Shown here: piece after piece, positions 5,129 to 64,000 of the stretch | How the letters are laid out: every line of letters begins with the position of its first letter | Position numbering within the stretch: the stretch's first letter is position 1 | Assembly: GCA_002170535.1 (NCBI GenBank) | Contig: NHDW01000004.1 | Location: 186,190-250,189 of the forward strand | Direction: 5' to 3' | DNA length: 64,000 bases | Origin: Methylococcaceae bacterium TMED69 | GTDB taxonomy: Bacteria; Pseudomonadota; Gammaproteobacteria; Ga0077536 | Translations under genes and position numbers: made by a program | Notes under the pieces: model-generated | What the model was told of the DNA's origin: nothing | Databases searched by the model: none | What the model saw: the letters and a program-made list of their open reading frames with translations, nothing else

Positions 5129-6868
5129 ATGACTAAAATAAAAAAGCTATTTGAGACCCCTTACGGACGTCTTTTACTTTTTGTGCTACCACACTGGCAG
5201 ATCTTTTTTATTTCTATAGTGGCTATGTGTATGCTTGCATCGACGGAATGGATGCTTCCCGCTCTACTTAAGCCGTTAATTGATGAAAGTTTGGATTCAG
5301 ATAATTATAATATTAGAGCGATACCTCTTCTGTTGATCGTATTATTTTTATTTCGAGGTTTGTTCAGCTATATATCTACGGTTTCTCTTCACCTTGTAGC
5401 TCAAAAAGCAATCGAAGATATGCGAAACGCTATGTTCAGTAAATTACTTCGATTGGATATTGGATTTTTCGATAGTAATTCTTTAGGTGCAATGGTGTCT
5501 AAATTTACCTTCGATGTAAATCAAGTAGCGGAAGCGTCTACGAAAGTAATAACTGTTTTTGTTAAAGACAGTTTAGTAGTTTTGGTTCTTTTGATATATT
5601 TAATCTACTTAAATTGGCAGTTGGCTTTGTTACTAGTCTTAATAGGGCCACCAATCTCATTTTTCATCGTGAGATTATCAAAAAAAATGAGGGTAATGAG
5701 TAGAAATCTACAGTCTTCGATGGGCGATATAAATGAAGTTACTGAAGAATCAATTAGGGCAAATAAAGAGATTAAAGTTTTCAATACCTACACTAAGGAA
5801 GAACTACGGTTTGGTATCGCGACTAATAAGGTTAGAAAATTTCATATCAAAGTAGTAAGAGCTAGTGCGGCTTTGGTTCCGGCGATTCAAATTTTTGTGG
5901 CTATATCAATTGCAGCTTTAATCTATATTGCCTTAGATCAAGCTTCTAAAGGATTGACTACTAAGGGTGAATTTATCGCGTTTATTACAGCAACTGCATT
6001 ATTGCTTCCGCCAATAAAGAGATTGGCTGGAGCTAATGAATTTTTGCAAAGGGGCATCGCAGCATCGCAATCGGTATGTGAATTAATTGACGCATCTCCT
6101 GAATTGACTAGCACGGTGGAGTGCCCAAAAATTTCTAAATCTTTGATTTTTCATAATGTTAGCTTTTCCTTCGGAAAAAAAATGGTGCTAAGTAATCTTT
6201 CGTTTCAAATAAAAATTGGTGAACTGTTTGCTCTTGTGGGGCCTTCTGGCGGTGGTAAGAGTACTTTACTAAATTTACTACCAATATTTTATCGGCCTTC
6301 TTCAGGTCGGATTATTCTGGATGGCCTGTCGATTGACTCTTATTCTTTAGATAGCGTACGAGAACAAATCGCATATGTTGGCCAAGAGACTGTTTTATTC
6401 AATACAAGTATTTTAGGTAATTTGGTTTATGGTTGTAAGGAACATCCCGATTCACAAATGATTGAGAGAGCTATACAACTTGCTAATTTAGATAAATATG
6501 TTAACGGGTTGCCTAATCGTCTCGAAACTAGGGTGGGTCACAATGGAGTGAAGTTATCAGGAGGACAGCGACAGAGATTAGGTATTGCTAGGGCGTTTCT
6601 TCGGGATGCGTCGCTATTGATTTTAGATGAACCCACGGCGTCTCTTGACGCGGATTCAGAGCGAGAAATAAAAAAATCAATTTCAGAATTGAAAGTAGGT
6701 CGAATTTCTATAGTAGTAGCTCACCGCTTATCTACAATAAAAGAAGCTGATAAAATACTGTTTATAAATAACGGTACAATTATTGAAAGTGGAAGTCATC
6801 AAGATTTACTAAGTAAAAAAGGACATTATTATAATATGTACAAAGAAAGTAGCCAAAGAGAAACCTGA
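5129..6868 (+). CDS. msbA: lipid A export ABC transporter, fused permease/ATPase (MsbA family)
   Basis: Six-TM N-domain plus ABC domain with Walker A GPSGGGKST, LSGGQRQR signature, ILDEPTASLD Walker B; TGA stop. Confidence 0.85.
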   Translation: MTKIKKLFETPYGRLLLFVLPHWQIFFISIVAMCMLASTEWMLPALLKPLIDESLDSDNYNIRAIPLLLIVLFLFRGLFSYISTVSLHLVAQKAIEDMRNAMFSKLLRLDIGFFDSNSLGAMVSKFTFDVNQVAEASTKVITVFVKDSLVVLVLLIYLIYLNWQLALLLVLIGPPISFFIVRLSKKMRVMSRNLQSSMGDINEVTEESIRANKEIKVFNTYTKEELRFGIATNKVRKFHIKVVRASAALVPAIQIFVAISIAALIYIALDQASKGLTTKGEFIAFITATALLLPPIKRLAGANEFLQRGIAASQSVCELIDASPELTSTVECPKISKSLIFHNVSFSFGKKMVLSNLSFQIKIGELFALVGPSGGGKSTLLNLLPIFYRPSSGRIILDGLSIDSYSLDSVREQIAYVGQETVLFNTSILGNLVYGCKEHPDSQMIERAIQLANLDKYVNGLPNRLETRVGHNGVKLSGGQRQRLGIARAFLRDASLLILDEPTASLDADSEREIKKSISELKVGRISIVVAHRLSTIKEADKILFINNGTIIESGSHQDLLSKKGHYYNMYKESSQRET

Positions 6869-6873
6869 TTTTT

Positions 6874-9024
6874 ATGAATTCCCTGAATGTTAATTCTGAT
6901 TTAAATGAGCAGCAACTATTAGCAGTTGAATCAACGTCGAATCATACCTTAGTTTTAGCTGGCGCCGGAAGCGGGAAGACAAAGGTATTAACTCATCGTA
7001 TCGCGTGGTGTATTGAGACTGGCCAAGTAAGACCAGATTATATTCTAGCCGTAACGTTTACAAATAAAGCTGCTAAAGAAATGCAGCATAGAATACAAAG
7101 TTTAATTGAAACTCCAATTAACAGAATGTGGGTAGGAACTTTCCACGGAATTGCCCATAGATTATTGCGCATGCATCACGAATTGGCTAATTTAAGCCCT
7201 CAGTTTCAAATTATAGATACAGACGATCAATTAAGGATTATTAAAAGAATTTTAAAAGAATTGGATTTTACTGATAAAGAATATGACCCAAAAGAGATCC
7301 AATCGAGAATTAATTTTTGGAAAGAGGAAGGGGTAAGGCCAATAAAAGTGCAACTAGAAGGTTGTAGTAGCGATGAAATATCGCTTCAAATATTTAAAGA
7401 GTATGAAGCGATTTGCATCAAATCATCACTCGTAGATTTTTCTGAACTTCTCCTCAGAGTCTATGAACTTTTTTCCGATAATATCTCCCTCTTAGAGACT
7501 TATAGGTCTAGATTTCAGCACATTTTAGTCGATGAATTTCAAGATACTAACAAGCTTCAATATAGATGGCTAAATTTATTAGCCTCTCAAAAAAATAATT
7601 TTTTTGTGGTTGGGGACGATGATCAATCAATTTATAGTTGGCGCGGCGCGAGAGTTGAGAACATGCAGAAATTTAGAAAGCATTATCCCGATTACAATCT
7701 CATTCGACTGGAGCAAAACTATAGATCTTCCTCAAATATTTTAAGCGCAGCAAATGCATTAATATCGAACAATCCTAGCCGTATAGGTAAAAATTTATGG
7801 ACTAACAAAGAGGATGGTAAACCTTTGATGCTTTACTCAGCCTATAACGAGCTCGATGAGGCAAGATATGTGGTTGATACTATAGAATCAGAAATTCAAT
7901 CTGATCACGAACATAAGCTCGCTGATTGCGCAATTTTATATAGAGTTAGTGCGCAGTCTAGAGTTCTTGAGGACGCTTTGAGACTAAAGGGAATTGAATA
8001 TAGAGTTTACGGTGGTTTTAGATTTTATGATCGAGCCGAAATTAAAGATGTTTTAGGTTATCTCAGATTAGTTTTTTCTAAAAACGATGATGCCGCTTTT
8101 GAAAGAATTGTTAATTTTCCACCGAGAGGACTTGGAGACAAAGCACTGGGGGCAATAAGAGAAGGGGCTAGATTCTATAATGTTTCTTTATTCCAAGCTG
8201 CCGAAACCTTGCTAAAAAATGAAGAATTACCAACGCGAACGCAAAAAGCCCTAAATGACTTCTTCATTGTGATAGATGATATTAAAAACCATGAGGTAAC
8301 TGATAATGATAGTCTTTCGGAACTTATTGAAATTATTAGTTTAAAATCGGGTCTTATTGAACATTTTAAAAAAGAAAAAGGAGGTCGAGGCCTAGATAGA
8401 ATAGAAAACATAAATGAACTTACCATAGCTGCCAAAGATTTTGATGGTGTTGAGGAAAATGGAATTCTGGAGTCTTTTTTAACTCAAGCTTCTTTAGAAT
8501 CTGGCGAAACTCAAGCAAGCGAGGGGGCAGACTGTGTTCAGCTAATGACGCTTCATTCTGCTAAGGGTCTGGAGTTTAAGTTTGTATTCATTTTGGGTCT
8601 CGAGGAGGGGCTTTTTCCACACAAGCGTTCTATTGGTTCTATGGACCAATTGCAAGAGGAAAGACGTCTGTGCTATGTAGGCATTACTCGCGCCCAAGAA
8701 TATCTTTGCCTGACTCATGCTGAGTCACGACGATTGCATGGTTCAGAATACTTAACAAGTCTGTCAAGATTTGTTAAAGAGCTTCCGGAATCTACAATTG
8801 AGCACGTGAGAATAGGGGGCTCATTCATTGATTTCTCGAACGAAGGAAAGCAATCCCCTGAAGGCGATTATCACCTTGGTCAGTCGGTAAAGCATGATAT
8901 ATTCGGATCAGGAATTGTTCTTGCCCTTGAAGGTAGAGGAGAAAGTTTAAGGATACAGGTCAACTTTGAGGATTCGGGCATTAAATGGTTAGTCGCATCC
9001 TATGCAGGATTAAAGAAAATATAA
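6874..9024 (+). CDS. uvrD: DNA helicase II (UvrD/Rep family)
   Basis: AGAGSGKT Walker A, full set of SF1 helicase motifs, 716 aa. Confidence 0.9.
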   Translation: MNSLNVNSDLNEQQLLAVESTSNHTLVLAGAGSGKTKVLTHRIAWCIETGQVRPDYILAVTFTNKAAKEMQHRIQSLIETPINRMWVGTFHGIAHRLLRMHHELANLSPQFQIIDTDDQLRIIKRILKELDFTDKEYDPKEIQSRINFWKEEGVRPIKVQLEGCSSDEISLQIFKEYEAICIKSSLVDFSELLLRVYELFSDNISLLETYRSRFQHILVDEFQDTNKLQYRWLNLLASQKNNFFVVGDDDQSIYSWRGARVENMQKFRKHYPDYNLIRLEQNYRSSSNILSAANALISNNPSRIGKNLWTNKEDGKPLMLYSAYNELDEARYVVDTIESEIQSDHEHKLADCAILYRVSAQSRVLEDALRLKGIEYRVYGGFRFYDRAEIKDVLGYLRLVFSKNDDAAFERIVNFPPRGLGDKALGAIREGARFYNVSLFQAAETLLKNEELPTRTQKALNDFFIVIDDIKNHEVTDNDSLSELIEIISLKSGLIEHFKKEKGGRGLDRIENINELTIAAKDFDGVEENGILESFLTQASLESGETQASEGADCVQLMTLHSAKGLEFKFVFILGLEEGLFPHKRSIGSMDQLQEERRLCYVGITRAQEYLCLTHAESRRLHGSEYLTSLSRFVKELPESTIEHVRIGGSFIDFSNEGKQSPEGDYHLGQSVKHDIFGSGIVLALEGRGESLRIQVNFEDSGIKWLVASYAGLKKI

Positions 9025-36772: not shown

Positions 36773-38134
36773 ATGGAAACACAAATATCAGCACTAACAA
36801 CAATATTTACCGAGTTCTATTACTGGGTAACAGTAGTTCTAATGTTTCTTATTCATGTTGGATTCTGTGTTTACGAGGTCGGAGTTTCTAGGCGAAAAAA
36901 TCATTTACATACTTTAATGAAAAATACGATTTTGATACCTATTGTTACCGTAAGTTTCTTTCTTTTTGGCTGGTGGTTCTACTGGGCTATGCCTAACGGG
37001 CCTGGAATTACCGGTGGATTGGTTTTAGAGGCAGAAGGGTTCGGTGCTAATGAATTAGCCCTTCCATGGTCATCTGCAATGGCTGTAAATTTAGGTGATA
37101 GAATTAACCTTGTATTTTGGGCCGCGTTCCTTTTATTTTCTTGGACCGCAGCATCCATAGTGTCTGGCGCAATAATCGAAAGAATCAGGACGGTTGCTTT
37201 TGCAATTATTGCTGTTGTGATTGGTTCTGTAATATGGGTAATAGATGCCTCCTGGGGTTGGCATTACGCTGGATGGATGGTTAATAAGCTGGGCTATCAT
37301 GACGCTTATGCGTCAGGTGTAATCCACGCCGCCTCCGGCGGCTTTGCTTTGGGAATTTTAGCGGTATTAGGCCCTAGAATAGGAAAATTTAGGAATGGTA
37401 AGGTTAATGTAATAAACCCTCAAAATCCATGGTTAGTTACAATCGGTATATTTTTAATCTATACGGGTTTTTGGGGATTTTACGCAGCTTGCAATGTGCC
37501 TATATATGATATTGGTAGTGACTTCGGAGACGGTCAAAAGTTTTTTTCAGCAACAAATATTTATTTGACACCGACCACTTTGAGCGGAATTACTGCAAAC
37601 TTTCTGATGTCGTTGTCTGGGGGTATGTTAACTAGTTATCTCGTGTCGAAAGGAGATCCGTTTTGGACATATTCAGGTGGTTTAGCAGGTATCATTTTAG
37701 CGTCAGCGGGCAATGATCTTTACAGTCCATTGCAAGCGTTTGCGATTGGCTCAGTTGGAGTTTATTTTGTTTATAAATTACATTTCTATGTTGAAGAGAA
37801 GTTTAAGATAGACGATGCTGTCGGTGCTGTTGCCGTACATGGATACGCAGGTACAATAGGCCTTATAATTTGTGGTTTCGTTTTATGGGGATATCCTGCG
37901 TCGGCATATTATGAAAGCACTATTAACCCTCTAGGAATGATTGTTGGGGCTGCAATAATGTTTGTATTTTTTGGATTTCTGCCTGGCTGGACATTAGCAA
38001 AACTCTTGAATTTTTTGGGAATCCTTCGGATACCTCCTGAAATAGAAATAGCTGGACTTGACTTTGCTTCTGAGAAAAAGACAACCCTGGAGAATGAAAA
38101 TATGGTCTTGGCTGAAATAGAAGAGATTAAATGA
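36773..38134 (+). CDS. amt: ammonium transporter (Amt family)
   Basis: 11-TM Amt/MEP fold, conserved twin-His region context, 453 aa; no glnK adjacent. Confidence 0.9.
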   Translation: METQISALTTIFTEFYYWVTVVLMFLIHVGFCVYEVGVSRRKNHLHTLMKNTILIPIVTVSFFLFGWWFYWAMPNGPGITGGLVLEAEGFGANELALPWSSAMAVNLGDRINLVFWAAFLLFSWTAASIVSGAIIERIRTVAFAIIAVVIGSVIWVIDASWGWHYAGWMVNKLGYHDAYASGVIHAASGGFALGILAVLGPRIGKFRNGKVNVINPQNPWLVTIGIFLIYTGFWGFYAACNVPIYDIGSDFGDGQKFFSATNIYLTPTTLSGITANFLMSLSGGMLTSYLVSKGDPFWTYSGGLAGIILASAGNDLYSPLQAFAIGSVGVYFVYKLHFYVEEKFKIDDAVGAVAVHGYAGTIGLIICGFVLWGYPASAYYESTINPLGMIVGAAIMFVFFGFLPGWTLAKLLNFLGILRIPPEIEIAGLDFASEKKTTLENENMVLAEIEEIK

Positions 38135-53977: not shown

Positions 53978-54037
53978 CATTAATACGTTACGGATAAAGT
54001 GTCAAGAGGGTTTATAATTAAATTTTGGATACTCACT

Positions 54038-54568
54038 ATGCGTTTAATTTTAACTTTGATTTTTTTCTCGGTTTGCTCACAAAGTTGCTTTTCTGCAACC
54101 GCTACGACTGAGCGAATTTTTATGGACTATCGGATTAATCTAGAAAAGCTATCACACCAATCCTCTAAGAGAGGCGAGTTGTTTATTTCAGTTTTTAAAG
54201 GTGATCTTCCCGTCACTAAATTACTGCTGACACATGAGGGTATAATAGCTGAATATTTAGTTATGGATATAGATAACAATAACAGTCTTGAAATTATTTT
54301 ATTATTTGAAAATACGCTCAAGAATATCCGAATTTTCACTATGAAGCGGCATGAGCTAATGGAATTGACTATAGGAAATCAAGACTTAACCAATAAAAGC
54401 CTTAAATTTATAAAAATCGATAAAGAAGGAGATGATATTTACAGAACTCTGGAGGTTTTGGACGGTGAGCGAATATATTTGCAGGTTCAAAAATTTTGTT
54501 TCAGAGAACAGCAGTGGTGTGAGTATATCGACTGTACAACTATTCCCCAGATGAGTTTTTGTAGCTGA
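54038..54568 (+). CDS. hypothetical secreted protein (176 aa)
   Basis: ATG at 54038 gives a signal peptide (MRLILTLIFFSVCSQSCFSA); no recognisable domain; 3' end overlaps the gamma-subunit gene convergently. Confidence 0.5.
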   Translation: MRLILTLIFFSVCSQSCFSATATTERIFMDYRINLEKLSHQSSKRGELFISVFKGDLPVTKLLLTHEGIIAEYLVMDIDNNNSLEIILLFENTLKNIRIFTMKRHELMELTIGNQDLTNKSLKFIKIDKEGDDIYRTLEVLDGERIYLQVQKFCFREQQWCEYIDCTTIPQMSFCS

Positions 54569-55208
54569 AAATGCATCCTAGTTTACCGTCTGTCTCATTA
54601 TTGATTTCCATGATTGTACTGAATACGTAGTGAGAATCTGCCGGTTGCAAAATGCACCGTAAATGATCTGACCGTTTATTAACCTTCCTTAAAATAGCGT
54701 TTGCTCCTGCAAGCGATCCACAAAGTAAACCTGATTCAGACCAGGCTGAATCAGGAACGGGAACAAGTTCTTTTAAAACTAAAGAAGCAACTGGTCCCAT
54801 CATCGCAAATTCACAGTAATCAGCACGTTGTACAACATAATTGACAGAGCTAGACGGAATTGAACTTTTAAAACCGTTAATCAACGTTTCGTCATAGGAG
54901 TTGACAAGTATGATTTTTTCTTGGTCAAGACAAATAATTCCACCACTACCCACTGAGGTCCATTGAAATGGCTCTATATCATTAATTTCAAAGTAGGTTT
55001 TTGTTATTAGCGCTGCTTCTTTCCCTAAAATTATTAACTTCTGAAGACAGGATAAATCGAATATGCAACTGATTTCTGAAGTGGCTTTGAAAGGTTTTCG
55101 AAGAGCACTTATTTGACAGGATTGAAATGTTTTAGTCTCTACTGTACTTTTATCGAAGAAAGCTCCTAAGGGGCTTGTGCTATCAAAGTCACCATGTATT
55201 AAAGTCAT
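54540..55208 (-). CDS. sarcosine oxidase gamma-subunit family protein (probable N-methylglutamate dehydrogenase subunit D)
   Basis: 222 aa, SoxG family size and position (last of four sox-like genes); ATGA overlap with alpha subunit. Confidence 0.7.
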   Translation of the reverse strand: MTLIHGDFDSTSPLGAFFDKSTVETKTFQSCQISALRKPFKATSEISCIFDLSCLQKLIILGKEAALITKTYFEINDIEPFQWTSVGSGGIICLDQEKIILVNSYDETLINGFKSSIPSSSVNYVVQRADYCEFAMMGPVASLVLKELVPVPDSAWSESGLLCGSLAGANAILRKVNKRSDHLRCILQPADSHYVFSTIMEINNETDGKLGCIFSYKNSSGE

Positions 55209-58057
55209 ACATTCTGCCTTTCATTTTCTGGATCATAAAAACTCGAAGAAACAACTAATGCGCTAAGAGTCGAGCCATCATCAAGTCTAATTTGGACTGA
55301 CTCGTTTTGATGAAACGGGACGTTTATCATAGCTAGGCCAATGATTTTCTTTAAGGTTGGGCTGAAGTTTACACTTGTTACTCTTCCTGTGATATCGCCT
55401 TGAAAGATTGTAAGATTATTTTCCTTGATCTCAAGTCCTCTTAAATCACTCATTTCGAAGCCTACAAGTTTTCGTGCTACATTTTCTTTTAGGTCTTTCA
55501 AACTGTTTCTACCATAAAATCGATCTTTCTTTAAATTAACCCCCCATCCTAGGTTAACTTCAAAGGGGTTGGTGTTACCATCTGTATCTTGTCCAAAAAT
55601 AAGATGGCCTTTTTCTAAGCGAAGTAATCTCTGCGCTTCTACTCCGAAAGGTTTAATGTGGTTAGGCCTACCCGCTTCGAGTAATCCATTCCAAACCCTA
55701 GCTAAGCTATTTGTAGGCATATGTATCTCATAACCTAGTTCGCCCACAAACCCTACACGCATTATTCTTGATGGTACTCCGCAAACGGTTGCCTCTCTAT
55801 AGCCTAAGTAAGGAAACTCCTCTGCATTGAGCGGATAATCCGTAACTTGGCTCAATACATTTTTCGAGGAAGGGCCGGCCAAATTCAAGGCACCGACTTG
55901 GCCCGTATGATCCCAAATTGTGACATCTAATTTTAATTGTGCCTTAAAAAGTTCAAGTAGCCTAACAACGGTTTGGGAGTGGCTACTAGTTGCTGTAATG
56001 TAAAAATGGTTTTCCCCAAGTTTTGCAGCTACTCCATCATCTACCAGCGTTCCACCGGCGTCTACCATGAAAATATACCGAGTCATTTCTAATTTTAATT
56101 TATCAAATTTGCAAGTATAAGCGTACTCTAGTAATGCCTCTGCGTCGGGCCCAAAAAGTTCGATTTTACCGAGTGTTGAAACATCAATGATGCCTACGTT
56201 TTTTCTCACTGTTGAGTATTCTTTAGCTATAAGATCTCTGGAAACCGATCCACCATAGGCCATTGGACGACGCCAAACCCCATTTTCCTTTATATCAGCC
56301 ATTTGTTCCTGGTGATATGCATCAAGACTAGTTCTTCTCTCTCTCCTTACTCGTCTGCCTGCAAGTTTTCCTATTGGTACAGGATAAACAAAAGGTCTGG
56401 GTGTTACAGTTCCTACATTACCTACGGGTAGTTCATTAAATTCAGCTACTAATCTGATGCCGTTTAAATTGGACAATTTGCCTTGACTAGGCCCCATTCC
56501 AATAGTGCTATATCTTTTCAGTAACTCAATTGAATCAAACCCTTCTTTCATGCCATTTATCAAATCCTTTACTTTTAAATCTTCATCCAGATCAATAAAC
56601 TCATTTCCTTTGGCATGCGGATAGATCGGGTAGGAATGGCTCTGATTTTCACAAGCTATTTCGATGTTATTCGAAACCACTTGATTCTCTAAGAAGGCCT
56701 CGCAAGCGGCGGCCGTGAGTTTACCATCTTCTAATCTGTTTGTAAGGTCATAAACACCCCTAACCGATCCAGCAGCGAAAATCCCTAAAGGCAACTCATC
56801 TGGGATCAGCTGATTAATTTCTTCAATGTACTTTAGCTTGCTTCCTGCTTGTACGAGCAAATTTGAAGCAGGCGACCAACCAATACTCATTATTAAGCCA
56901 TCACATACGATTTCTTTAGAGGAAGGATCATTGACGGTCCGGTAAACGAATGAACTTAAACAACCATTTTTGCTTTTTGCTTCCGTCGGAACTACATCAC
57001 TTACTACTTCAATCCCTATTGATTCTGCGTGCTTCTTAAGTACTCCATTTGCTTCAAAGGGTGATAGTTGTAAAATGTAATTTACATTTACTCCTGAGGC
57101 TTTAAGTTTCAATAGGCGTTTGAATCCTAAGTCATTTGCTACCAGTGCGATTGACTTTTCGAATGGGTCGATTGAATATCTATGAGCTAATCTGGCTACA
57201 GCGGACCCTAATACAACCCCGGGAAGATCATTATTTCGAAAAACGGCAGGTTGTTCATAGGCTCCAGAGCAAGTAATTATTGCTTTTGCTGAAACTAATT
57301 TACAACCATTTGGTCCTTCTAAAATTACCGATTTGTCATCGTAATACCCACTCGCGAAATGTTGATTTAAGCAAGTAATATTCGAGGCCGCTGTTTCCCT
57401 GATATTTGATTGGATTCTTTCCGAAAGATCTTCCAGTTCGAAGCCGGAACATCCCCCAAGTTTAAGATTTTCGTCTGCAATTATTACTTTGTACTTCGAT
57501 TTCGAAAAATACGCGGCTGCTGCGGTTCCTGAGGCACCTCCACCAATGATTAGAACATCGCAAAATAAGGTTTCAGAAGGATATCGTTTTTTAGTGTAAT
57601 TAGCCTTGACTTGCCCTAATCCAGCTAAGTTTCGGATAAGTTTTTCCCAATAGGGCCACAGAAAAGCTGGTTTAAAAAAGGCTTTGTAATAAAATCCGAC
57701 CGGAAGTATTGGTGCGAATACACCCAGAATACGAGTGAGGTCATTACGTACCCCACCGATTGTATTAATAGCTTTTAAGCTGCCATAATCCTCATTTGCC
57801 AGAGAAACATCACCTCTGATATTGGTTCTATCCTCAGATTGGAGGAGAACATTGGCGTCATGGTTAGCAAGTGAGACAAAGCCTCTTGGTCGATGGTATT
57901 TAAAACTTCTCCCTAATATTTTTTGTTCATTAGCTATCAAAGCACTTGTGATGGAATCACCTTTGAATGCGGTAATTTCATTGCCTTCAAATTTGAATGT
58001 TATCTTTTTGGAACGATCAATCCACTCATTATCTTTTGCTGGTAACCTTCTTGCCAT
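55205..58057 (-). CDS. sarcosine oxidase alpha-subunit family protein (probable N-methylglutamate dehydrogenase subunit C)
   Basis: 950 aa; N-terminal 2Fe-2S-like region, NAD/FAD Rossmann (IIGGGASG), C-terminal aminomethyltransferase/folate-binding (GcvT-like) domain. Confidence 0.85.
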   Translation of the reverse strand: MARRLPAKDNEWIDRSKKITFKFEGNEITAFKGDSITSALIANEQKILGRSFKYHRPRGFVSLANHDANVLLQSEDRTNIRGDVSLANEDYGSLKAINTIGGVRNDLTRILGVFAPILPVGFYYKAFFKPAFLWPYWEKLIRNLAGLGQVKANYTKKRYPSETLFCDVLIIGGGASGTAAAAYFSKSKYKVIIADENLKLGGCSGFELEDLSERIQSNIRETAASNITCLNQHFASGYYDDKSVILEGPNGCKLVSAKAIITCSGAYEQPAVFRNNDLPGVVLGSAVARLAHRYSIDPFEKSIALVANDLGFKRLLKLKASGVNVNYILQLSPFEANGVLKKHAESIGIEVVSDVVPTEAKSKNGCLSSFVYRTVNDPSSKEIVCDGLIMSIGWSPASNLLVQAGSKLKYIEEINQLIPDELPLGIFAAGSVRGVYDLTNRLEDGKLTAAACEAFLENQVVSNNIEIACENQSHSYPIYPHAKGNEFIDLDEDLKVKDLINGMKEGFDSIELLKRYSTIGMGPSQGKLSNLNGIRLVAEFNELPVGNVGTVTPRPFVYPVPIGKLAGRRVRRERRTSLDAYHQEQMADIKENGVWRRPMAYGGSVSRDLIAKEYSTVRKNVGIIDVSTLGKIELFGPDAEALLEYAYTCKFDKLKLEMTRYIFMVDAGGTLVDDGVAAKLGENHFYITATSSHSQTVVRLLELFKAQLKLDVTIWDHTGQVGALNLAGPSSKNVLSQVTDYPLNAEEFPYLGYREATVCGVPSRIMRVGFVGELGYEIHMPTNSLARVWNGLLEAGRPNHIKPFGVEAQRLLRLEKGHLIFGQDTDGNTNPFEVNLGWGVNLKKDRFYGRNSLKDLKENVARKLVGFEMSDLRGLEIKENNLTIFQGDITGRVTSVNFSPTLKKIIGLAMINVPFHQNESVQIRLDDGSTLSALVVSSSFYDPENERQNV

Positions 58058-58293
58058 TATTGTTCCTCAATGGAAAGTATGGCATTGGCTTTAGTTTCAC
58101 GGCTTACCCTAAACCACTTTTGTGAAGGTTGGTGATACCACCACTCCATTCTCTTAAGAGGTCGGCTATCTTGGTGATAGGCCCATCTGCCCGCTGAGCC
58201 CTCGAGATCGGCAGGCTCTGGGTCGATGGCGCCTCCATAAATGAATTCTGTGATGGGTCTTTCTCCAATCAATGGGCAATTTAAGTATTTCAT
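58057..58293 (-). CDS. sarcosine oxidase delta-subunit family protein (probable N-methylglutamate dehydrogenase subunit B)
   Basis: MKYLNCPLIGERPITEF start matches SoxD (MLLIECPNCGPRNENEF); ATG at 58293; stop overlaps alpha start. Confidence 0.75.
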   Translation of the reverse strand: MKYLNCPLIGERPITEFIYGGAIDPEPADLEGSAGRWAYHQDSRPLKRMEWWYHQPSQKWFRVSRETKANAILSIEEQ

Positions 58294-58303
58294 AGTGGTA
58301 AAA

Positions 58304-59545
58304 TTAGTGGCCGACTGAGGCCGCCCCTTTCTCCCCGACAAGCTTGAAATCCTCGAATCTATTAAGATTGAATTCAGTGATCAGTGAATCGTCTTTATTA
58401 AGGGCTATTGAGTTTGCCATACATTTTCCGCTCACCGGAGTTGCTTTGAAGCCCCAAGTACCCCAACCTGAATCTAGAAAGAATCCATCAACTGGAGTAG
58501 TTCCCATAATAGGAGCAAAGTCTGGTGTCATGTCTGCCATGCCAGCCCATTGTCTATTAATCTTTACAGAACTTAGAAACGGGAATAAATCTAATATTTG
58601 GTCGCACATACCAGAGACAAATTCATAGCTTGATTTAGTGTTGTGCTGTTCAATTGGATCGACTGATGCACCCATCACAAGCTCTCCTCTGGAGCTTTGG
58701 CTGACGTAAATATGTAAACTTCCTGAGACGATTATAGTGTTTAGCCATGGTTTCATTGGTTCAGTAACACAGGCTTGGAGAGGATAGATATCGATTGGAG
58801 AATCGAGTCCGACCATGTTTAAAACTGTCGGTGTGGCACCCGCTACGGCTGAAAGTACTGTACTGGTTTTAATTGGGCCTCTATTTGTTTCAACAGAAAC
58901 GACTTTGTTTTTCTCGATATTAATTCCTGTTACTAGGGTATTCTGATGGATCTCAACCCCTTTTTGACAAGCTTTTTTTGCGTATCCCCATGCTACGGCA
59001 TCGTGCCTCGCGACAGCCCCAGGTGCATGAAACAGTGCGCCTTCAATAGGATGGTTGCCACCGCACTCAAGATCTATCTCAGGACAGGCCGCTTTGACCT
59101 CAGACGGTCCAACAACACTGCTGTCTATCCCATAATGTTTATTTACTTCTGCCCTCCATCTGGCGGTCCTCAAAGTAGCGTCGCTGTGTGCCAAAGTGAA
59201 GTGGCCCCTTTCAGAGAAAAAGATATTAGTTTCAAGTTCTTCCGAAAGTTGGTTAAATAATCGTACGCTCTCACCATAAAATTTAACCCCCTCTTCGGTT
59301 AGATAATTTGATCTTATAATGGTAGTGTTTCTACCTGTATTTCCAGCTCCAATATAGCTCTTTTCTAAAACGGCTACTTTACTTATGTTATGATAGTGGG
59401 AAAGATAGTAAGCACAAGCTAGGCCATGGCCACCGGCGCCAATTATTACAACATCATAGGATTCCTCAAGATCTTTCGCAGGATTGAACCACCTGTGTTC
59501 TGAATGGTTATCTATGAAGCCGTACTTTAATAATCTTATAGACAT
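58304..59545 (-). CDS. sarcosine oxidase beta-subunit family FAD oxidoreductase (probable N-methylglutamate dehydrogenase subunit A)
   Basis: 413 aa, VVIIGAGGHGLA dinucleotide-binding motif, DAO-family fold. Confidence 0.85.
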   Translation of the reverse strand: MSIRLLKYGFIDNHSEHRWFNPAKDLEESYDVVIIGAGGHGLACAYYLSHYHNISKVAVLEKSYIGAGNTGRNTTIIRSNYLTEEGVKFYGESVRLFNQLSEELETNIFFSERGHFTLAHSDATLRTARWRAEVNKHYGIDSSVVGPSEVKAACPEIDLECGGNHPIEGALFHAPGAVARHDAVAWGYAKKACQKGVEIHQNTLVTGINIEKNKVVSVETNRGPIKTSTVLSAVAGATPTVLNMVGLDSPIDIYPLQACVTEPMKPWLNTIIVSGSLHIYVSQSSRGELVMGASVDPIEQHNTKSSYEFVSGMCDQILDLFPFLSSVKINRQWAGMADMTPDFAPIMGTTPVDGFFLDSGWGTWGFKATPVSGKCMANSIALNKDDSLITEFNLNRFEDFKLVGEKGAASVGH

Positions 59546-59569
59546 ATGGAATTACTTTTGTGTATGAAA

Positions 59570-59962
59570 TTAATCAAATTTCCCGTAAGCAGTTCTTAAT
59601 GCTACTAGCGGATGGTTGTCTGACATTTGGAACTTAACAAGTAGTTCTCTAGCAATCATGTCTCTTTCCTGTTGGTTATCGGGCAGTTTTAGATCTGGTG
59701 GTACCGTTACCCATCCGTTAATATTGCGGTCGAATACAGCGGCACGACCCTCTTCGTAACCCATGTGGATGTCTTCGAGCCAATTCAGGTCTTTCCAACC
59801 CATATAATCTAGATATTTTTTAAGAAAAGGCGTCAACCTAGATAGGTCTGGTAATAGATTTACATCATAGCGATAACCAATCGTTTGTCCTATCATCTTC
59901 TCTCGCTCAGAGTCGACTCCATCTGACTTTAGATAATGATCAATGTCTTTGTTTTCACCCAT
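59570..59962 (-). CDS. hypothetical protein (130 aa) inserted between the mgs-like and sox-like genes
   Basis: Complete ORF, same strand, tight spacing; no recognisable domain. Confidence 0.5.
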   Translation of the reverse strand: MGENKDIDHYLKSDGVDSEREKMIGQTIGYRYDVNLLPDLSRLTPFLKKYLDYMGWKDLNWLEDIHMGYEEGRAAVFDRNINGWVTVPPDLKLPDNQQERDMIARELLVKFQMSDNHPLVALRTAYGKFD

Positions 59963-59992
59963 AGCTCTTCTCCTATCTAAAAATTATCGTAA

Positions 59993-61330
59993 TTAAAATC
60001 GGTTCAGGTCTGGCCGCCCGACCGTGACTTGGGTCCCGGCTAAAGGTACTTGAGCCATCGCGGAGGCTTCCATTGTTAGAGCAGCTAAATCCTCAGGCTC
60101 TAATGAGTGAATATTGGTTTTTCCACAGGCTCGGGCCATCATTTGGCACTCTATCGCAAGGGTGTGAAGGAAGTTATATACTCTCTCTGCGGCTTTGTCC
60201 GGGTCAAGTCTTTCTCTGAGTTTAGGATCTTGCGTGGCAATCCCAACTGGGCATCTCCCTGTATGGCAGTGATAGCAGTTGCCAGCTTTCACGCCCATTT
60301 CTTCCTCGAAATTGGCTTCTGGTATGTCCTTGTTGCAGTTTAAGGCCATCATAGACGCGTGACCAATTGCTATGGCGTCCGCCCCTAATGCTAAAGCTTT
60401 TGCGATATCTCCGCCATTTCGGATTCCGCCTGCATAGACTAATGTAATTTCTCCGCTTTTACCTACATCGTCTAAAGCTCGCCTTGCTTGTCTGATAGCA
60501 GCGATTCCAGGGACGCCTGTTTCTTCCGAGGCTAGGTGGGGTCCTGCGGCAGTTCCGCCTTCCATTCCGTCTATATAGATTGAGTCTGGGTCTGTCTTAG
60601 CGGCCATTCGAACGTCATCATATACTCTAGCAGCGCCCAATTTAAGTTGGATGGGTATTTCCCAGTTCGTTGCCTCTCTAATTTCTTCGATCTTGAGAGC
60701 CAGATCATCTGGTCCTAACCAGTCAGGATGTCTCGCGGGAGATCTCTGATCTATTCCAGCAGGTAGCGAACGCATCTCCGCGACTTGATCAGTAACCTTC
60801 TGACCCATAAGATGACCACCTAATCCTACTTTTGCTCCTTGACCAATAAAGAATTCGCACCCGTCAGCCAGTCGCAAGTGCTGCGGATTAAATCCATATC
60901 TAGATTGTATGCATTGATAAAACCATTTCTCTGAAAAACGTCTTTCATCTGGAATCATTCCACCTTCACCAGAGCATGTGGCTGTTCCCGCCATTGTTGC
61001 ACCTCTAGCTAAAGCTGTTTTCGCTTCAAATGATAGTGCTCCGAAGCTCATTCCTGTTATGTAAACTGGTATGTCGAGCTCAATCGGCCGTTTTGCCCTA
61101 GGTCCAATGATTGTTTTGGTTTCACATTTTTCCCTGTAACCTTCGATAACGAATCTAGTTAACGTACCCGGCATGAATGTTAGCTGGTCCCACCCAGGAA
61201 CCTTTTTAAACATTGAAAAACCCCGCATTCTGTATCTGCCAAGCTCAGATTTTATATGAATGTCATTCACTACATCAGGAGTGAAAATTGGGCTTTTCCC
61301 TAGTAAATACTTTTCCTTATCGTCAGACAT
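59993..61330 (-). CDS. glutamate synthase FMN-binding-domain protein (GlxD / probable N-methylglutamate synthase subunit C)
   Basis: 445 aa matching the FMN/Fe-S central domain of GltB (GGTAAGP, Cys cluster CYHCHTGRCPVG). Confidence 0.8.
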   Translation of the reverse strand: MSDDKEKYLLGKSPIFTPDVVNDIHIKSELGRYRMRGFSMFKKVPGWDQLTFMPGTLTRFVIEGYREKCETKTIIGPRAKRPIELDIPVYITGMSFGALSFEAKTALARGATMAGTATCSGEGGMIPDERRFSEKWFYQCIQSRYGFNPQHLRLADGCEFFIGQGAKVGLGGHLMGQKVTDQVAEMRSLPAGIDQRSPARHPDWLGPDDLALKIEEIREATNWEIPIQLKLGAARVYDDVRMAAKTDPDSIYIDGMEGGTAAGPHLASEETGVPGIAAIRQARRALDDVGKSGEITLVYAGGIRNGGDIAKALALGADAIAIGHASMMALNCNKDIPEANFEEEMGVKAGNCYHCHTGRCPVGIATQDPKLRERLDPDKAAERVYNFLHTLAIECQMMARACGKTNIHSLEPEDLAALTMEASAMAQVPLAGTQVTVGRPDLNRF

Positions 61331-61350
61331 AGCTGTTACTCCTTTTTGTT

Positions 61351-62199
61351 TTAAAGAACCAGTTTTTTTTCACTGGGTTCGAGGCTATCGTAATTCCATA
61401 GTTGTTTGCCGGATACGACTTTTTTAATCGTTGATAAATTTAACTTATCGACCAATCCGTAAAGGGTTAATTTATCAGTCAACCATTTTTCATCGGATTC
61501 GGTGGTCTCTGATTCGACTGCGTCGGCTCCTAAGCTTTTGATTTTTCCGCCGACATAAATCGTACCATCATACATTGAGTCCCCAAGATTATTTCCAGCA
61601 TCACCTAAGACCACCATTCTACCCCTTTGCATCATAAATCCTGAAAAAGCGCCCGTGTTTCCTCCAGCGATTATTGTGCCTCCTTTTTGATCGATTCCTG
61701 TTCTGGCACCCACATCTCCCTTACACACTAGGTCACCTCCTCGAATAGCAGCACCAAAAGTTGAACCAGCGTTTTTCTTTATAAGGACGGTTCCAGACAT
61801 CATGTTTTCTCCGCATGACCATCCAACTCTCCCCTCAACAGTGACGTTAGGCCCATCGAGAAGACCGAGGCCAAAATATCCTAGACTTCCTTCAATCTTT
61901 AAATTAAGCCTGTTAAGAATGCCTACTCCAATACTATGTTTAGCTCCCGGATTTTTGATGGTAATTGTTCCATAGCCTTCTGTGAGAAGGTGCTTTAATT
62001 TACTGTTAATCTGCCTTGTGTTTAAATCTTCCGCGTCGATTTCTGCTGACTTAGAAAAGTCAACTTCATAAGCGAAAGGCTGAGCCATTTTTTCTTCATT
62101 GTTATCCAAAGAAAAAAATACTTGCTGAGTTCTCCCCAGCAAGGATTCTGACCTCATTTCGGTTTTTAGGGGTTCATTCGATTTTTCTAAGCCTGCCAT
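61351..62199 (-). CDS. glutamate synthase GXGXG-domain protein (GlxC / probable N-methylglutamate synthase subunit B)
   Basis: 282 aa, repeated G-x-G-x-G beta-helix motifs typical of the GltB C-terminal domain. Confidence 0.8.
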   Translation of the reverse strand: MAGLEKSNEPLKTEMRSESLLGRTQQVFFSLDNNEEKMAQPFAYEVDFSKSAEIDAEDLNTRQINSKLKHLLTEGYGTITIKNPGAKHSIGVGILNRLNLKIEGSLGYFGLGLLDGPNVTVEGRVGWSCGENMMSGTVLIKKNAGSTFGAAIRGGDLVCKGDVGARTGIDQKGGTIIAGGNTGAFSGFMMQRGRMVVLGDAGNNLGDSMYDGTIYVGGKIKSLGADAVESETTESDEKWLTDKLTLYGLVDKLNLSTIKKVVSGKQLWNYDSLEPSEKKLVL

Positions 62200-63131
62200 A
62201 CTCTTACCTCTCCGTCATAAGGATCTGATGTGTCGATTTCATTATTCATAATTGTACGAATGGCGACCTCTTCTGATGCAAGAGCAACTAATTGGTCACT
62301 TTCAAAAAGTACCATTGGCTTCGCGGCCATAGTGTCTTTGGCCATTCCGAGAGAATCAGATGTAGCCAGTAAGTAAGTAAAAACCCCATCTAGTTCCTCT
62401 ACACTCTGAAGCATTGAGTCCTCTAGATTTCTTCCTTGTTCAATTTTGTCAGCTATATAAACAGCTATAAGCTCCGAGTCGCAACTAGACATAAATCGAT
62501 GGCCTTTTCTCTCTAATTCCCGCCTTTTGGACCAATAATTAGTTAATTGGCCGTTATGAACCACTGAAACATCGGCGAAAGGATAAGCCCAATAAGGATG
62601 TGCTGATCTGATGTCCACGTCGGATTCTGTCGCCATTCGGGTATGCCCTATTGCGTGTGTTCCATTAAAAGATTTTAGGGAGTACAAATCAGAAACAACC
62701 TTCGCGTCACCTAGGTCCTTAACAAGCTCTAGTCCTTTTCCTATTGAGAGTATTTCAACCCCCTCTATATCTTCAACGTAATTGGCCAGTTGGCGTAAGT
62801 TACCATCACAAGTAAATGTGTATCTTAGAGCATATTCCGTTATTTTCTCGACCTCGCTAACCTTAACTTTAAGCTCACTAAGCCGGCTTTGGACGCTTTT
62901 TATTCGATCCTCCATTTTGGCGTGAATGTCATAGCCATTGACCGCTTCGTGAGTTTCAGCAACTTTCATTCGCATGACATACTGTTCAGAATCTATGTTG
63001 TCTCTTTCGCAATAAAGAGCGAATCCCGTTGAATCTGGTCCTCGGTGTTTCATTGCTTGAAGCATAAAAGACATTTCCTCGCCTATTTTTGAGCTACCGT
63101 CTCTGTGTATCACCCCCGCTATTCCGCACAT
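62187..63131 (-). CDS. class II glutamine amidotransferase-domain protein (GlxB / probable N-methylglutamate synthase subunit A)
   Basis: MCGIAG N-terminal nucleophile Cys, GltB N-domain-like, 314 aa. Confidence 0.8.
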   Translation of the reverse strand: MCGIAGVIHRDGSSKIGEEMSFMLQAMKHRGPDSTGFALYCERDNIDSEQYVMRMKVAETHEAVNGYDIHAKMEDRIKSVQSRLSELKVKVSEVEKITEYALRYTFTCDGNLRQLANYVEDIEGVEILSIGKGLELVKDLGDAKVVSDLYSLKSFNGTHAIGHTRMATESDVDIRSAHPYWAYPFADVSVVHNGQLTNYWSKRRELERKGHRFMSSCDSELIAVYIADKIEQGRNLEDSMLQSVEELDGVFTYLLATSDSLGMAKDTMAAKPMVLFESDQLVALASEEVAIRTIMNNEIDTSDPYDGEVRVWQA

Positions 63132-63151
63132 AATTCGCTCCTGTTAATTAA

Positions 63152-64000
63152 CTATGGAAGACAATGCATATACATTTCTTGATCCCAATCAGTCACCGTT
63201 GCCATGAACTTTTCATGCTCGTCATTCTTATACCATTTATATATTTTATACATATCACCTGGCATCGACGCTTTAATAATCTCGTCATCTTCCAATCTCT
63301 GGAGTGCTTCGCCTAACGACATGGGAAGCTTTTTGACTTCTTTACCCGCTTCCATAGCCTCATAGATATTTCGATTTTCAGGTTCTCCCGGATCAATATC
63401 GTTGTCTATTCCATCTTCAAAAGCACTAAGAAGGGCTGAACCTAAAAGATAAGGATTGACCATCGAATCTACGGCTCTGTACTCGAATCTCCCAGGAGCT
63501 GATACTCGAAGTCCAGTGGTTCGATTTTGAAAACCCCAATCCGCAAAAACCGGAGCCCAAAAGCCCGTATCCCACAGCCTTCTATATGAATTTACTGTAG
63601 AGCAACCGATGGCTGTTAATGCGCCAAGGTGTTTAACGATACCACCGACACATTGTAAACCTACTTTCCCGGGTAACTGCGGATCATCGGTATCTGGCAT
63701 AAAAAGATTTTCTCCTTCCTCTCGGTAAGTAAACACCCCTTCCATACCGGGCAAAATGTTTTGATGAAGTTTATTGATTGCATCTTTTCCGCCTTTCCAA
63801 AGAGAAATATTTGTATGACAGCCTGATGCTGACACTCCCATAAAAGGTTTAGACATAAAGCATGCGATTAGATTATTCTCTCTAGCTACCTGAGCGCAAA
63901 TTTGACGGTAAGTTGATAGTCTGTCTGCATTTCTTACGACGTCATCAAACGTCCAATTGAGTTCGAGTTGTCCCGGTGCGTCCTCGTGATCGCCTTGGAT
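63152..64000 (-). CDS. glutamine synthetase-family protein, C-terminal catalytic domain (probable gamma-glutamylmethylamide synthetase); N-terminus beyond window end
   Basis: GS catalytic-domain blocks (ACFMSKPFMGVSASGCHTNISL); frame stays open to position 64000. Confidence 0.8.
   Translation of the reverse strand: MQGDHEDAPGQLELNWTFDDVVRNADRLSTYRQICAQVARENNLIACFMSKPFMGVSASGCHTNISLWKGGKDAINKLHQNILPGMEGVFTYREEGENLFMPDTDDPQLPGKVGLQCVGGIVKHLGALTAIGCSTVNSYRRLWDTGFWAPVFADWGFQNRTTGLRVSAPGRFEYRAVDSMVNPYLLGSALLSAFEDGIDNDIDPGEPENRNIYEAMEAGKEVKKLPMSLGEALQRLEDDEIIKASMPGDMYKIYKWYKNDEHEKFMATVTDWDQEMYMHCLP

Follow-up and report, generated by a model that had tools for sequence, protein, structure and literature searches.

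Does a gene cluster that resembles the N-methylglutamate (NMG) pathway of methylamine oxidation encode that pathway in its described form, or in a form of its own? The question is raised by the minus-strand genes that run from position 54540 to the far edge of the window, that is, the whole stretch of 64,000 nucleotides of Methylococcaceae bacterium TMED69 (contig NHDW01000004.1) that was analysed. Methylated amines make up a sizeable marine pool of nitrogen and one-carbon (C1) units and are precursors of aerosols, and the canonical gmaS-mgsABC-mgdABCD cluster has reportedly been described for Methyloversatilis universalis FAM5, Methylocella silvestris, Paracoccus aminophilus and Ruegeria pomeroyi. 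An earlier note on this DNA had read the genes as a complete cluster of that kind, with a gmaS-type ligase, an mgsABC-like split synthase and sox-like genes for an NMG dehydrogenase. Our analysis partly supports that reading: the type of pathway appears to be right and the claim of orthology appears to be wrong. The operon probably encodes a variant of the glutamate-mediated (gamma-glutamylmethylamide / NMG) route, and what is new here, as judged from sequence, is a divergent, paralogous version of the NMG ligase and synthase that is accompanied by two further proteins, DAO445 and orf130. Automated annotation already labels some of these genes as NMG pathway, and for the first isolate of UBA868 (Arenicellales) a preprint of 2026 reports the gamma-glutamylmethylamide / NMG route from genome annotation. 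The window alone would be a modest addition, a further marine gammaproteobacterium that has a glutamate-mediated pathway for methylamine. A literature search, which was not exhaustive, returned no description of such ligase genes as forming, together with DAO445 and orf130, a paralogous module of their own.

Nine co-directional open reading frames (ORFs) on the minus strand, tightly packed, extend from 54540 to past 64000, and ORF, Pfam and NCBIfam searches confirmed the genes, their order and their domains as the earlier note had listed them. The word "complete" did not hold, since the gene for the glutamine synthetase (GS)-like ligase runs past the window edge and is preceded by a further gene. 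An exact look-up of the flavin mononucleotide (FMN)-binding subunit led to a Tara contig, L082, that is identical to the window ends. On this contig the full-length GS-like gene (6707-8179) encodes 490 residues, hence our name GS490, and the gene for DAO445 lies 72 nt upstream of it in the same operon. The operon thus has ten genes, nine of them inside the window, and begins outside it:

L082 5298-6635, just past window position 64000: DAO445, a 445-residue DAO-family flavoprotein, encoded by the operon's first gene.
63152..>64000, minus strand: C-terminal 282 of the 490 residues of GS490 (Gln-synt_C, PF00120, 240 bits), the N-terminus lying past the window edge.
62187..63131, minus strand: MgsA*, class-II (Ntn) glutamine-amidotransferase subunit and MgsA paralogue (GATase_6/7; conserved MCGIAG nucleophile at the N-terminus).
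61351..62199, minus strand: MgsB*, GXGXG subunit and MgsB paralogue (PF01493; N-terminal extension of ~50 residues).
59993..61330, minus strand: MgsC*, FMN-binding Glu_synthase-domain subunit and MgsC paralogue (PF01645, 299 bits).
59570..59962, minus strand: orf130, a conserved protein of 130 residues with no Pfam or NCBIfam match.
58304..59545, minus strand: SoxB-like beta subunit, read as MgdA of the beta/gamma-proteobacterial type (TIGR01373, 444.7 bits, under the cut-off of 529).
58057..58293, minus strand: SoxD-like delta subunit (MgdB-like), 78 residues (PF04267, 51 bits).
55205..58057, minus strand: SoxA-like alpha subunit (MgdC-like; Fer2_4, Pyr_redox_2, SO_alpha_A3, GCV_T and GCV_T_C; TIGR01372, 688.9 bits, under the cut-off of 1164).
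54540..55208, minus strand: probable gamma subunit (MgdD-like), 222 residues, placed by position and a weak GCV_T match (E 0.014).

Intergenic gaps inside the window are at most 30 nt or are overlaps, and AGGAG ribosome-binding sites stand before most starts. The ATGA overlaps that had been noted among the sox-like genes are real at soxA/soxG, the sole ATGA among the junctions, and do not occur at the others (soxD/soxA reads TAATG); the mgsA* and mgsB* genes overlap by 13 nt. The SoxD-like protein most likely starts at the ATG at 58293 (78 residues), which sits 10 nt past the soxB stop and agrees with the 78-residue gene call on L082, rather than at a TTG that would give 94 residues. A scan for promoters and terminators found sites no more numerous than in shuffled controls.

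According to the reading that we favour, GS490 would use ATP to ligate monomethylamine (MMA) to the gamma-carboxyl of glutamate, the MgsA*B*C* complex would convert the gamma-glutamyl amide to NMG, the SoxBDAG-like enzyme, as an MgdABCD of the beta/gamma type, would oxidise NMG to glutamate, and its GcvT domain would hand the C1 unit to tetrahydrofolate. We infer every substrate and every reaction in this scheme from sequence and gene context. The gene content, the tight packing, the paralogy, the GmaS pocket residues and the linkage to methylated-amine genes are seen directly; and active-site residues, model scores and genomic context together argue, as the earlier note had it, for a methylamine/NMG-type cluster and not for GS-glutamate synthase (GOGAT) beside sarcosine oxidase.

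For the ligase, the evidence lies in the active site. In the GmaS of Rhodovulum (RhGmaS), the methylamine pocket comprises Tyr147, Gln175, Asp177, Glu179, Glu186, Asn188 and Lys30', the catalytic residues are Asp177, Glu186 and Arg312, and Trp300 and Ala48' replace, respectively, the flap Glu and Asp50' of GS (PMC7948447). All seven pocket residues are kept in GS490 (IQGDHEDAPGQLELNW) in a MAFFT alignment and in HMMER alignments to the solved GmaS 9QUR, and the catalytic R312 is kept as well. The flap Glu of GS is Trp in GS490 (GFWAP, vs. GYEAP in GS), and the position of Asp50' is occupied by Tyr in an uncertain part of the alignment, adjacent to an insertion of ~10 residues. The motif of GS490 is the GmaS-type D-H-E-D-A, whereas that of true GS is H-H-E-V-A, with D at Asp50'; insertions of its own account for the ~50 extra residues of GS490. 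A sequence search of the PDB, in which archaeal GS 8OOL ranked best at 201 bits, slightly over the solved GmaS entries, was rejected as a means of telling GmaS from GlnA because the scores were nearly equal, and the alignment of diagnostic residues and a tree were used instead. By alignment, the active site of GS490 is NEVERTHELESS GmaS-like, and we conclude that GS490 is a predicted, divergent GmaS-like gamma-glutamyl-amine synthetase.

The synthase genes show the layout expected of MgsABC: three adjacent genes, for a class-II GATase subunit with N-terminal Cys, a GXGXG subunit and an FMN-binding Glu_synthase subunit, stand beside a GmaS-type ligase. At up to 54% identity, the three subunits are far closer to NMG synthase than to GltB (MgsC* matches the full-length GltB model with 133 bits only), and some members of the MgsC* cluster are named "methylamine-glutamate N-methyltransferase subunit C" in IMG. 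Copies of MgsC* in modules of other classes are 81-90% identical to that of the window (82-88% for alphaproteobacterial copies). MgsC* carries a C-x2-C-x4-C motif (NCYHCHTGRCPVG) and an upstream Cys, as does the canonical MgsC of Acidithiobacillus caldus, and in alpha-type and Acinetobacter MgsC the same site reads AYDDWHEGRDPAG (comparison with reference loci L088, L089, L090 and L091, introduced below); this uneven distribution suggests an Fe-S site that only some NMG-synthase lineages possess.

The sox-like genes bear out the proposal that they encode NMG dehydrogenase rather than sarcosine oxidase. They lie in one cluster with genes of the gmaS/mgs type, and their four-subunit product has, in its alpha subunit, a GcvT-type tetrahydrofolate-binding domain, which is the layout of MgdABCD. 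With sarcosine oxidase (TSOX, SoxBDAG; 2GAG, 1X31) it shares the beta-delta-alpha-gamma order and the DAO, SoxD and Fer2_4/FAD/A3/GcvT domains; it differs in its beta subunit, which shares only 41% identity with that of true TSOX (2GAG_B), in its gamma subunit, which cannot be recognised from sequence, and in its nearest annotated relatives, which lie in NMG, not betaine or creatine, clusters. All NCBIfam TSOX models scored under their cut-offs (in addition to the two given above, TIGR01374 at 31.8 vs. 116.5), and the A. caldus sox-like proteins also fall under the TSOX cut-offs. The window beta subunit is 39-41% identical to alpha-proteobacterial MgdA, vs. 50-53% between TSOX beta and that MgdA, and these beta-subunit identities alone would put the window genes in a third clade. 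Closer relatives were found by tblastn of plasmids, in the gene orders purU-soxB'-soxD'-soxA'-(unannotated gamma)-glnT-mgsA-mgsB-mgsC-folD on an A. caldus megaplasmid and purU-folD-soxB'D'A'G', two amt, glnT-mgsABC on an Acinetobacter plasmid. The A, B and C subunits of the window are 64, 37 and 42% identical to those of A. caldus and 52, 38 and 40% identical to those of Acinetobacter, identities that point to orthology with the mgd genes of canonical NMG clusters, the reference genes being themselves known by sequence. Because these relatives sit in canonical NMG clusters, NMG dehydrogenase is the better reading, and by sequence the sox-like genes are of the type that stands beside gmaS-mgsABC in the canonical clusters of beta- and gammaproteobacteria.

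To place the operon among its relatives we took a census, by tblastn, of 80 loci with relatives of GS490; many of the loci are truncated, and all counts are therefore minima. These relatives are 73-87% identical to GS490 over the C-terminal 282 residues and 69-86% identical over the full length. A relative of MgsA* (at least 55% identity) is present in 68 of the 80 loci, MgsC* in 57, orf130 in 55 and DAO445 in 30, and the results define a conserved six-gene module, DAO445, GS490, MgsA*, MgsB*, MgsC* and orf130. The module appears to be widespread and is very highly conserved across phyla; its lineages include Arenicellales, SUP05/Thioglobus, Kiloniellaceae, Roseovarius, Rhodospirillales and SAR324, that is, alphaproteobacteria, gammaproteobacteria and SAR324, whereas cyanobacteria have GS490 alone, without the rest of the module. 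In the species collection, the nearest relatives are uncultured marine Gammaproteobacteria and Arenicellales, with 79-87% identity in the GS-like protein.

Neighbouring genes of the 80 loci were clustered into families, and one representative per family was checked against NCBIfam. The representatives of Tmm (794 vs. cut-off 675), Tdm (1228 vs. 1100) and an Amt-family transporter were recognised. Genes for Tmm or Tdm occur in 18 of the loci, amt in 25, folD or fhs in 10 and mgd in nine, and this linkage ties the module to the catabolism of methylated amines. Seven of the nine mgd sets are of the beta/gamma type and two (in loci L045 and L050) of the alpha type, in different classes, and linkage to two different Mgd types in different classes argues that the product of the module feeds Mgd. 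A tmm gene also lies directly upstream of the GS490 gene (73% identical) in two of five cyanobacterial loci (L052, 7917-10852; L065, 5281-10852), and tdm is nearby in L065. In a further cyanobacterial locus (L074, 9350-12942), tmm lies ~5 kb upstream and a copper amine oxidase follows GS490; none of these three loci has Mgs*, DAO445 or orf130. The amt gene of the window (36773..38134, plus strand) is 43% identical to Amt genes that flank the module elsewhere; its presence was correctly reported, and it lies 16 kb from the operon and outside it.

Several findings weigh against our reading. Neither GS490 nor the Mgs* subunits are orthologues of any characterised enzyme, and here the claims that the ligase is gmaS-type by orthology and the split synthase mgsABC both failed. 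On TIGR03105 ("type III glutamate--ammonia ligase", the GmaS model), full-length GS490 scores 294.9 bits, under the cut-off of 469.6, whereas canonical GmaS proteins (from Thioclava-like loci, A. caldus and a gammaproteobacterial metagenome-assembled genome, or MAG) score 640-657 bits. The canonical copies used for comparison were those of Thioclava (L088), Rhizobium (L089) and Acinetobacter (L091) plasmids and of the A. caldus megaplasmid (L090). Against canonical GmaS of the alpha, beta/gamma and Acinetobacter types, GS490 reaches 29-31% identity, and in a neighbour-joining tree (428 columns; small, distance-based and with few outgroups) canonical GmaS, including 9QUR, forms a clade with 92% bootstrap that leaves GS490 outside. 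GS490 forms its own clade in that tree, apart also from GS type I-alpha; the two outcomes that the earlier note had named as refuting its reading, a ligase within the GlnA clade and sox-like genes grouped with true SoxBDAG, were not found. Identities to the canonical synthase subunits are 30-33% for MgsA*, 38-42% for MgsB*, where the N-terminal extension is seen in the alignment, and 51-54% for MgsC*, and by sequence we take MgsA*B*C* to be paralogues of mgsABC. The known NMG pathway offers no role for DAO445 or orf130. Within the 64 kb of the window there is no tmm, tdm, folD, fhs, purU or canonical gmaS. The 222-residue ORF is only a probable gamma subunit: it has no significant Pfam match, its AlphaFold 2 (AF2) model has a mean predicted local distance difference test (pLDDT) score of 49, its top Foldseek matches, GcvT (E 7e-4) and TSOX gamma 2gag_C (E 4e-3), are suggestive only, and it is poorly conserved and fast-evolving, with 11 homologues only.

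Canonical gmaS-mgsABC also stands beside the GS490 gene or module in three loci (L009, L027 and L054), which argues against simple redundancy. The first of these, from a gammaproteobacterial MAG (L009, 9374-20491), has a GS490 85% identical to that of the window in the order GS490-soxBDAG-mgsABC-gmaS, without Mgs* or orf130 of its own; the soxBDAG genes are 72% identical to those of the window, and mgsABC-gmaS, at 50-82% identity to their Thioclava counterparts, are true orthologues of the canonical genes. The presence of both sets in one locus shows that the canonical and GS490 systems are paralogous and able to coexist, and it suggests that the module is not simply redundant with the canonical set.

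The module (DAO445, GS490, Mgs* and orf130) could instead handle dimethylamine (DMA), or DMA and MMA, in place of DmmDABC, which many marine bacteria lack; we consider this unlikely, though less so than the other alternatives. GS490 would form gamma-glutamyl-dimethylamide, DAO445 would demethylate either the amide or N,N-dimethylglutamate, and Mgs* and Mgd would finish the oxidation. DmmDABC, to which the module has no sequence relationship, has its place at the same point of trimethylamine islands, between tmm/tdm and the genes for methylamine; in a canonical island of Rhizobium, dmmCBAD lies between tmm and gmaS. No dmmA, dmmB or dmmC was found within 10 kb in any of the 80 loci, though 18 have tmm or tdm, and none was found in the window. 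This absence covers the 10-kb surroundings rather than whole genomes, and distance by itself is a weak guide, since dmm of R. pomeroyi lies ~17 genes from tdm. The gene for the DMA-producing enzyme, tdm, is an immediate neighbour of the module in several gammaproteobacterial loci, two different amine-oxidising flavoenzymes in one operon would match two methyl groups, and coexistence with canonical gmaS-mgsABC would fit distinct roles; DAO445, however, is present in 30 of the 80 loci only, though many are truncated. RhGmaS has some activity with DMA (PMC7948447), and yet the seven residues of its MMA pocket are unchanged in GS490. SAR11 lacks the dmmDABC genes, as do abundant marine Gamma- and Deltaproteobacteria, and the Dmm gap in the marine methylated-amine pathway has been called a "metabolic bottleneck" (PMC5520151), which the module would close if the DMA reading were true. 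In its fullest form, with the six-gene module as the route for DMA derived from trimethylamine N-oxide (TMAO) demethylase in marine bacteria that lack Dmm, by way of gamma-glutamyl-dimethylamide and flavin-dependent demethylation by DAO445, the proposal is improbable to a slightly greater degree; its candidate users may include Arenicellales/UBA868-like and SUP05 gammaproteobacteria, SAR324 and many alphaproteobacteria.

Distinctly doubtful is the alternative of a different small amine, for example ethylamine or ethanolamine, with which the module would activate and N-alkylate glutamate; DAO445 would then oxidise the resulting N-alkyl glutamate and so yield an aldehyde. The nearest outgroup of GS490 in the tree is a GS-like protein, 54-56% identical, from a plasmid of Paracoccus sp. 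TOH, and it belongs to a puu-like cluster, which suggests that the GS490 lineage arose among enzymes of amine gamma-glutamylation. That cluster (plasmid p2; L081, 12523-18690) also contains another GS-like gene, two genes for aldehyde dehydrogenases, one for a type-1 amidotransferase and a gene of the gamma-glutamyl-gamma-aminobutyrate (GABA) hydrolase family. A monomeric DAO-type oxidase without a folate domain is what non-C1 products would call for, and the copper amine oxidase after the cyanobacterial GS490 in L074 would also fit. Against this, the genes to which the module is consistently linked are those of C1 and methylated-amine metabolism (tmm, tdm, folD, fhs and mgd with its folate-binding domain), and the MMA pocket is conserved. 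Compared with the gamma-glutamylation pathways for putrescine (PuuA/PuuB) and isopropylamine (IpuC), the module has the same pairing of a GS-like ligase and a DAO-family flavoprotein as PuuA/PuuB; it differs in lacking a gamma-glutamyl hydrolase and an aldehyde dehydrogenase and in being coupled to an NMG-synthase-like complex and C1 genes.

That the operon is simply a canonical NMG cluster, with a gmaS orthologue and mgsABC, is very unlikely. The likeness is considerable: three enzyme types in one operon, an Ntn-GATase/GXGXG/FMN synthase, GmaS-type active-site residues, a SoxBDAG-like dehydrogenase that is orthologous to the A. caldus/Acinetobacter type and has a folate-binding alpha subunit, and domain architecture and gene order that match gmaS-mgsABC-mgd clusters. 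At ~1e-56 by BLAST to canonical GmaS, GS490 would even pass the e-50 cut-off of published surveys (PMC5520151). The TIGR03105 score, the exclusion of GS490 from the canonical clade, identities of 29-54% and the true canonical sets that adjoin the module in three loci nevertheless speak for a separate lineage, and the operon differs from the canonical cluster in its longer ligase (490 residues vs. ~435-465), in the extended GXGXG subunit, in synthase subunits that are 30-54% identical, in the absence of purU and folD, in its ability to coexist with the canonical set, and in two extra fixed genes, for DAO445 and orf130, that the canonical clusters examined do not have.

Ammonium assimilation by a true GS and an archaeal-type split GOGAT, beside a genuine sarcosine oxidase for the breakdown of glycine betaine or creatine, is highly improbable: the GS fold, the split GATase/GXGXG/FMN set like that of archaeal GOGAT, the similar overall distance to 8OOL and the 41% identity of the beta subunit to true TSOX would fit it, but GS490 lacks the flap Glu and Asp50', has the D-H-E-D motif of GmaS and scores 244 bits on the GlnA model TIGR00653 (cut-off 429), the FMN subunit is closer to MgsC than to GltB, no GltD-like reductase or other electron-donating subunit is present, the sox-like genes fall below all TSOX cut-offs and cluster with genes of NMG loci, and the neighbours of the module are tmm and tdm, not betaine genes.

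The variant NMG route that we favour bears on how methylamine users are counted. At ~1e-56 to canonical GmaS, GS490-type genes would be included in "gmaS" surveys at a loose e-50 threshold, and current estimates of oceanic methylamine users may mix two systems, one of which alone is characterised. The substrate of the module would tell whether marine bacteria have in it a second methylamine route, perhaps of higher affinity, or the dimethylamine step that is missing. For SAR11, gene order (glxBCD, then glnT; PMC3160333) suggests that glnT-glxBCD is canonical rather than of the GS490 type. The possibility that the module corresponds to R. pomeroyi SPO1554-1559, beside tmoR, was ruled out because SPO1557 is fhs-1, and no R. 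pomeroyi protein was found among the best 120 relatives of a Roseovarius GS490.

The two extra proteins are fixed companions of the ligase and synthase. The 130-residue gene, which the earlier note had passed over as an incidental unknown, is a highly conserved, fixed member of the module: orf130 follows MgsC* in the 55 loci that have it, at least 7990 of 8000 scored candidates were significant matches, and mean column identity is 88% in an alignment of the 24 closest selected homologues (78-87% identical). It was absent from the four canonical clusters examined (Thioclava, Rhizobium, A. caldus and Acinetobacter plasmids). The protein has no cysteine, its AF2 model (pLDDT 70) gave no fold match at E < 1 in a Foldseek search of the PDB, and among its best 120 matches all the named ones are "hypothetical" and most of the top ones come from metagenome collections. 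DAO445, 59-70% identical among the loci that have it, matches the general DAO domain only; its GenBank name is "monomeric sarcosine oxidase", and in the PDB it matches the N-terminal half of TSOX beta best, with 48 bits.

Next to the module, a divergent gene of the GntR family is present in 52 of the 80 loci, and beside this regulator, in 43, lies a gene of a family that we call f8 (for example L053, 7841-8395), which encodes ~190 residues with no Pfam or NCBIfam match. The candidacy of f8 as DmmA was rejected, as there was no NCBIfam match and no tblastn match to Rhizobium DmmA. In Roseobacters, a "gene of unknown function" lies between tmm and tmoR (PMC13390433), and f8 may be that gene. The window organism has neither f8 nor the GntR-family gene upstream of its module.

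Three smaller features mark the rest of the locus. A perfect 10-bp inverted repeat (CCTGATTCAG...CTGAATCAGG) with a T-rich tract lies at 54730-54755 on the minus strand, within the coding region of the gamma-like gene. A plus-strand ORF of 189 residues (53999-54568; 176 residues in the contig gene calls), with an N-terminal hydrophobic, signal-like segment and no significant family match, is convergent with the gamma-like gene, the 3' end of which it overlaps by 29 nt. The G+C content of the cluster (58001-64000) is 42-46%, vs. ~33-39% for most of the window, with groEL also at ~43%, and the raised value could reflect either strong amino-acid constraint or horizontal acquisition of the module.

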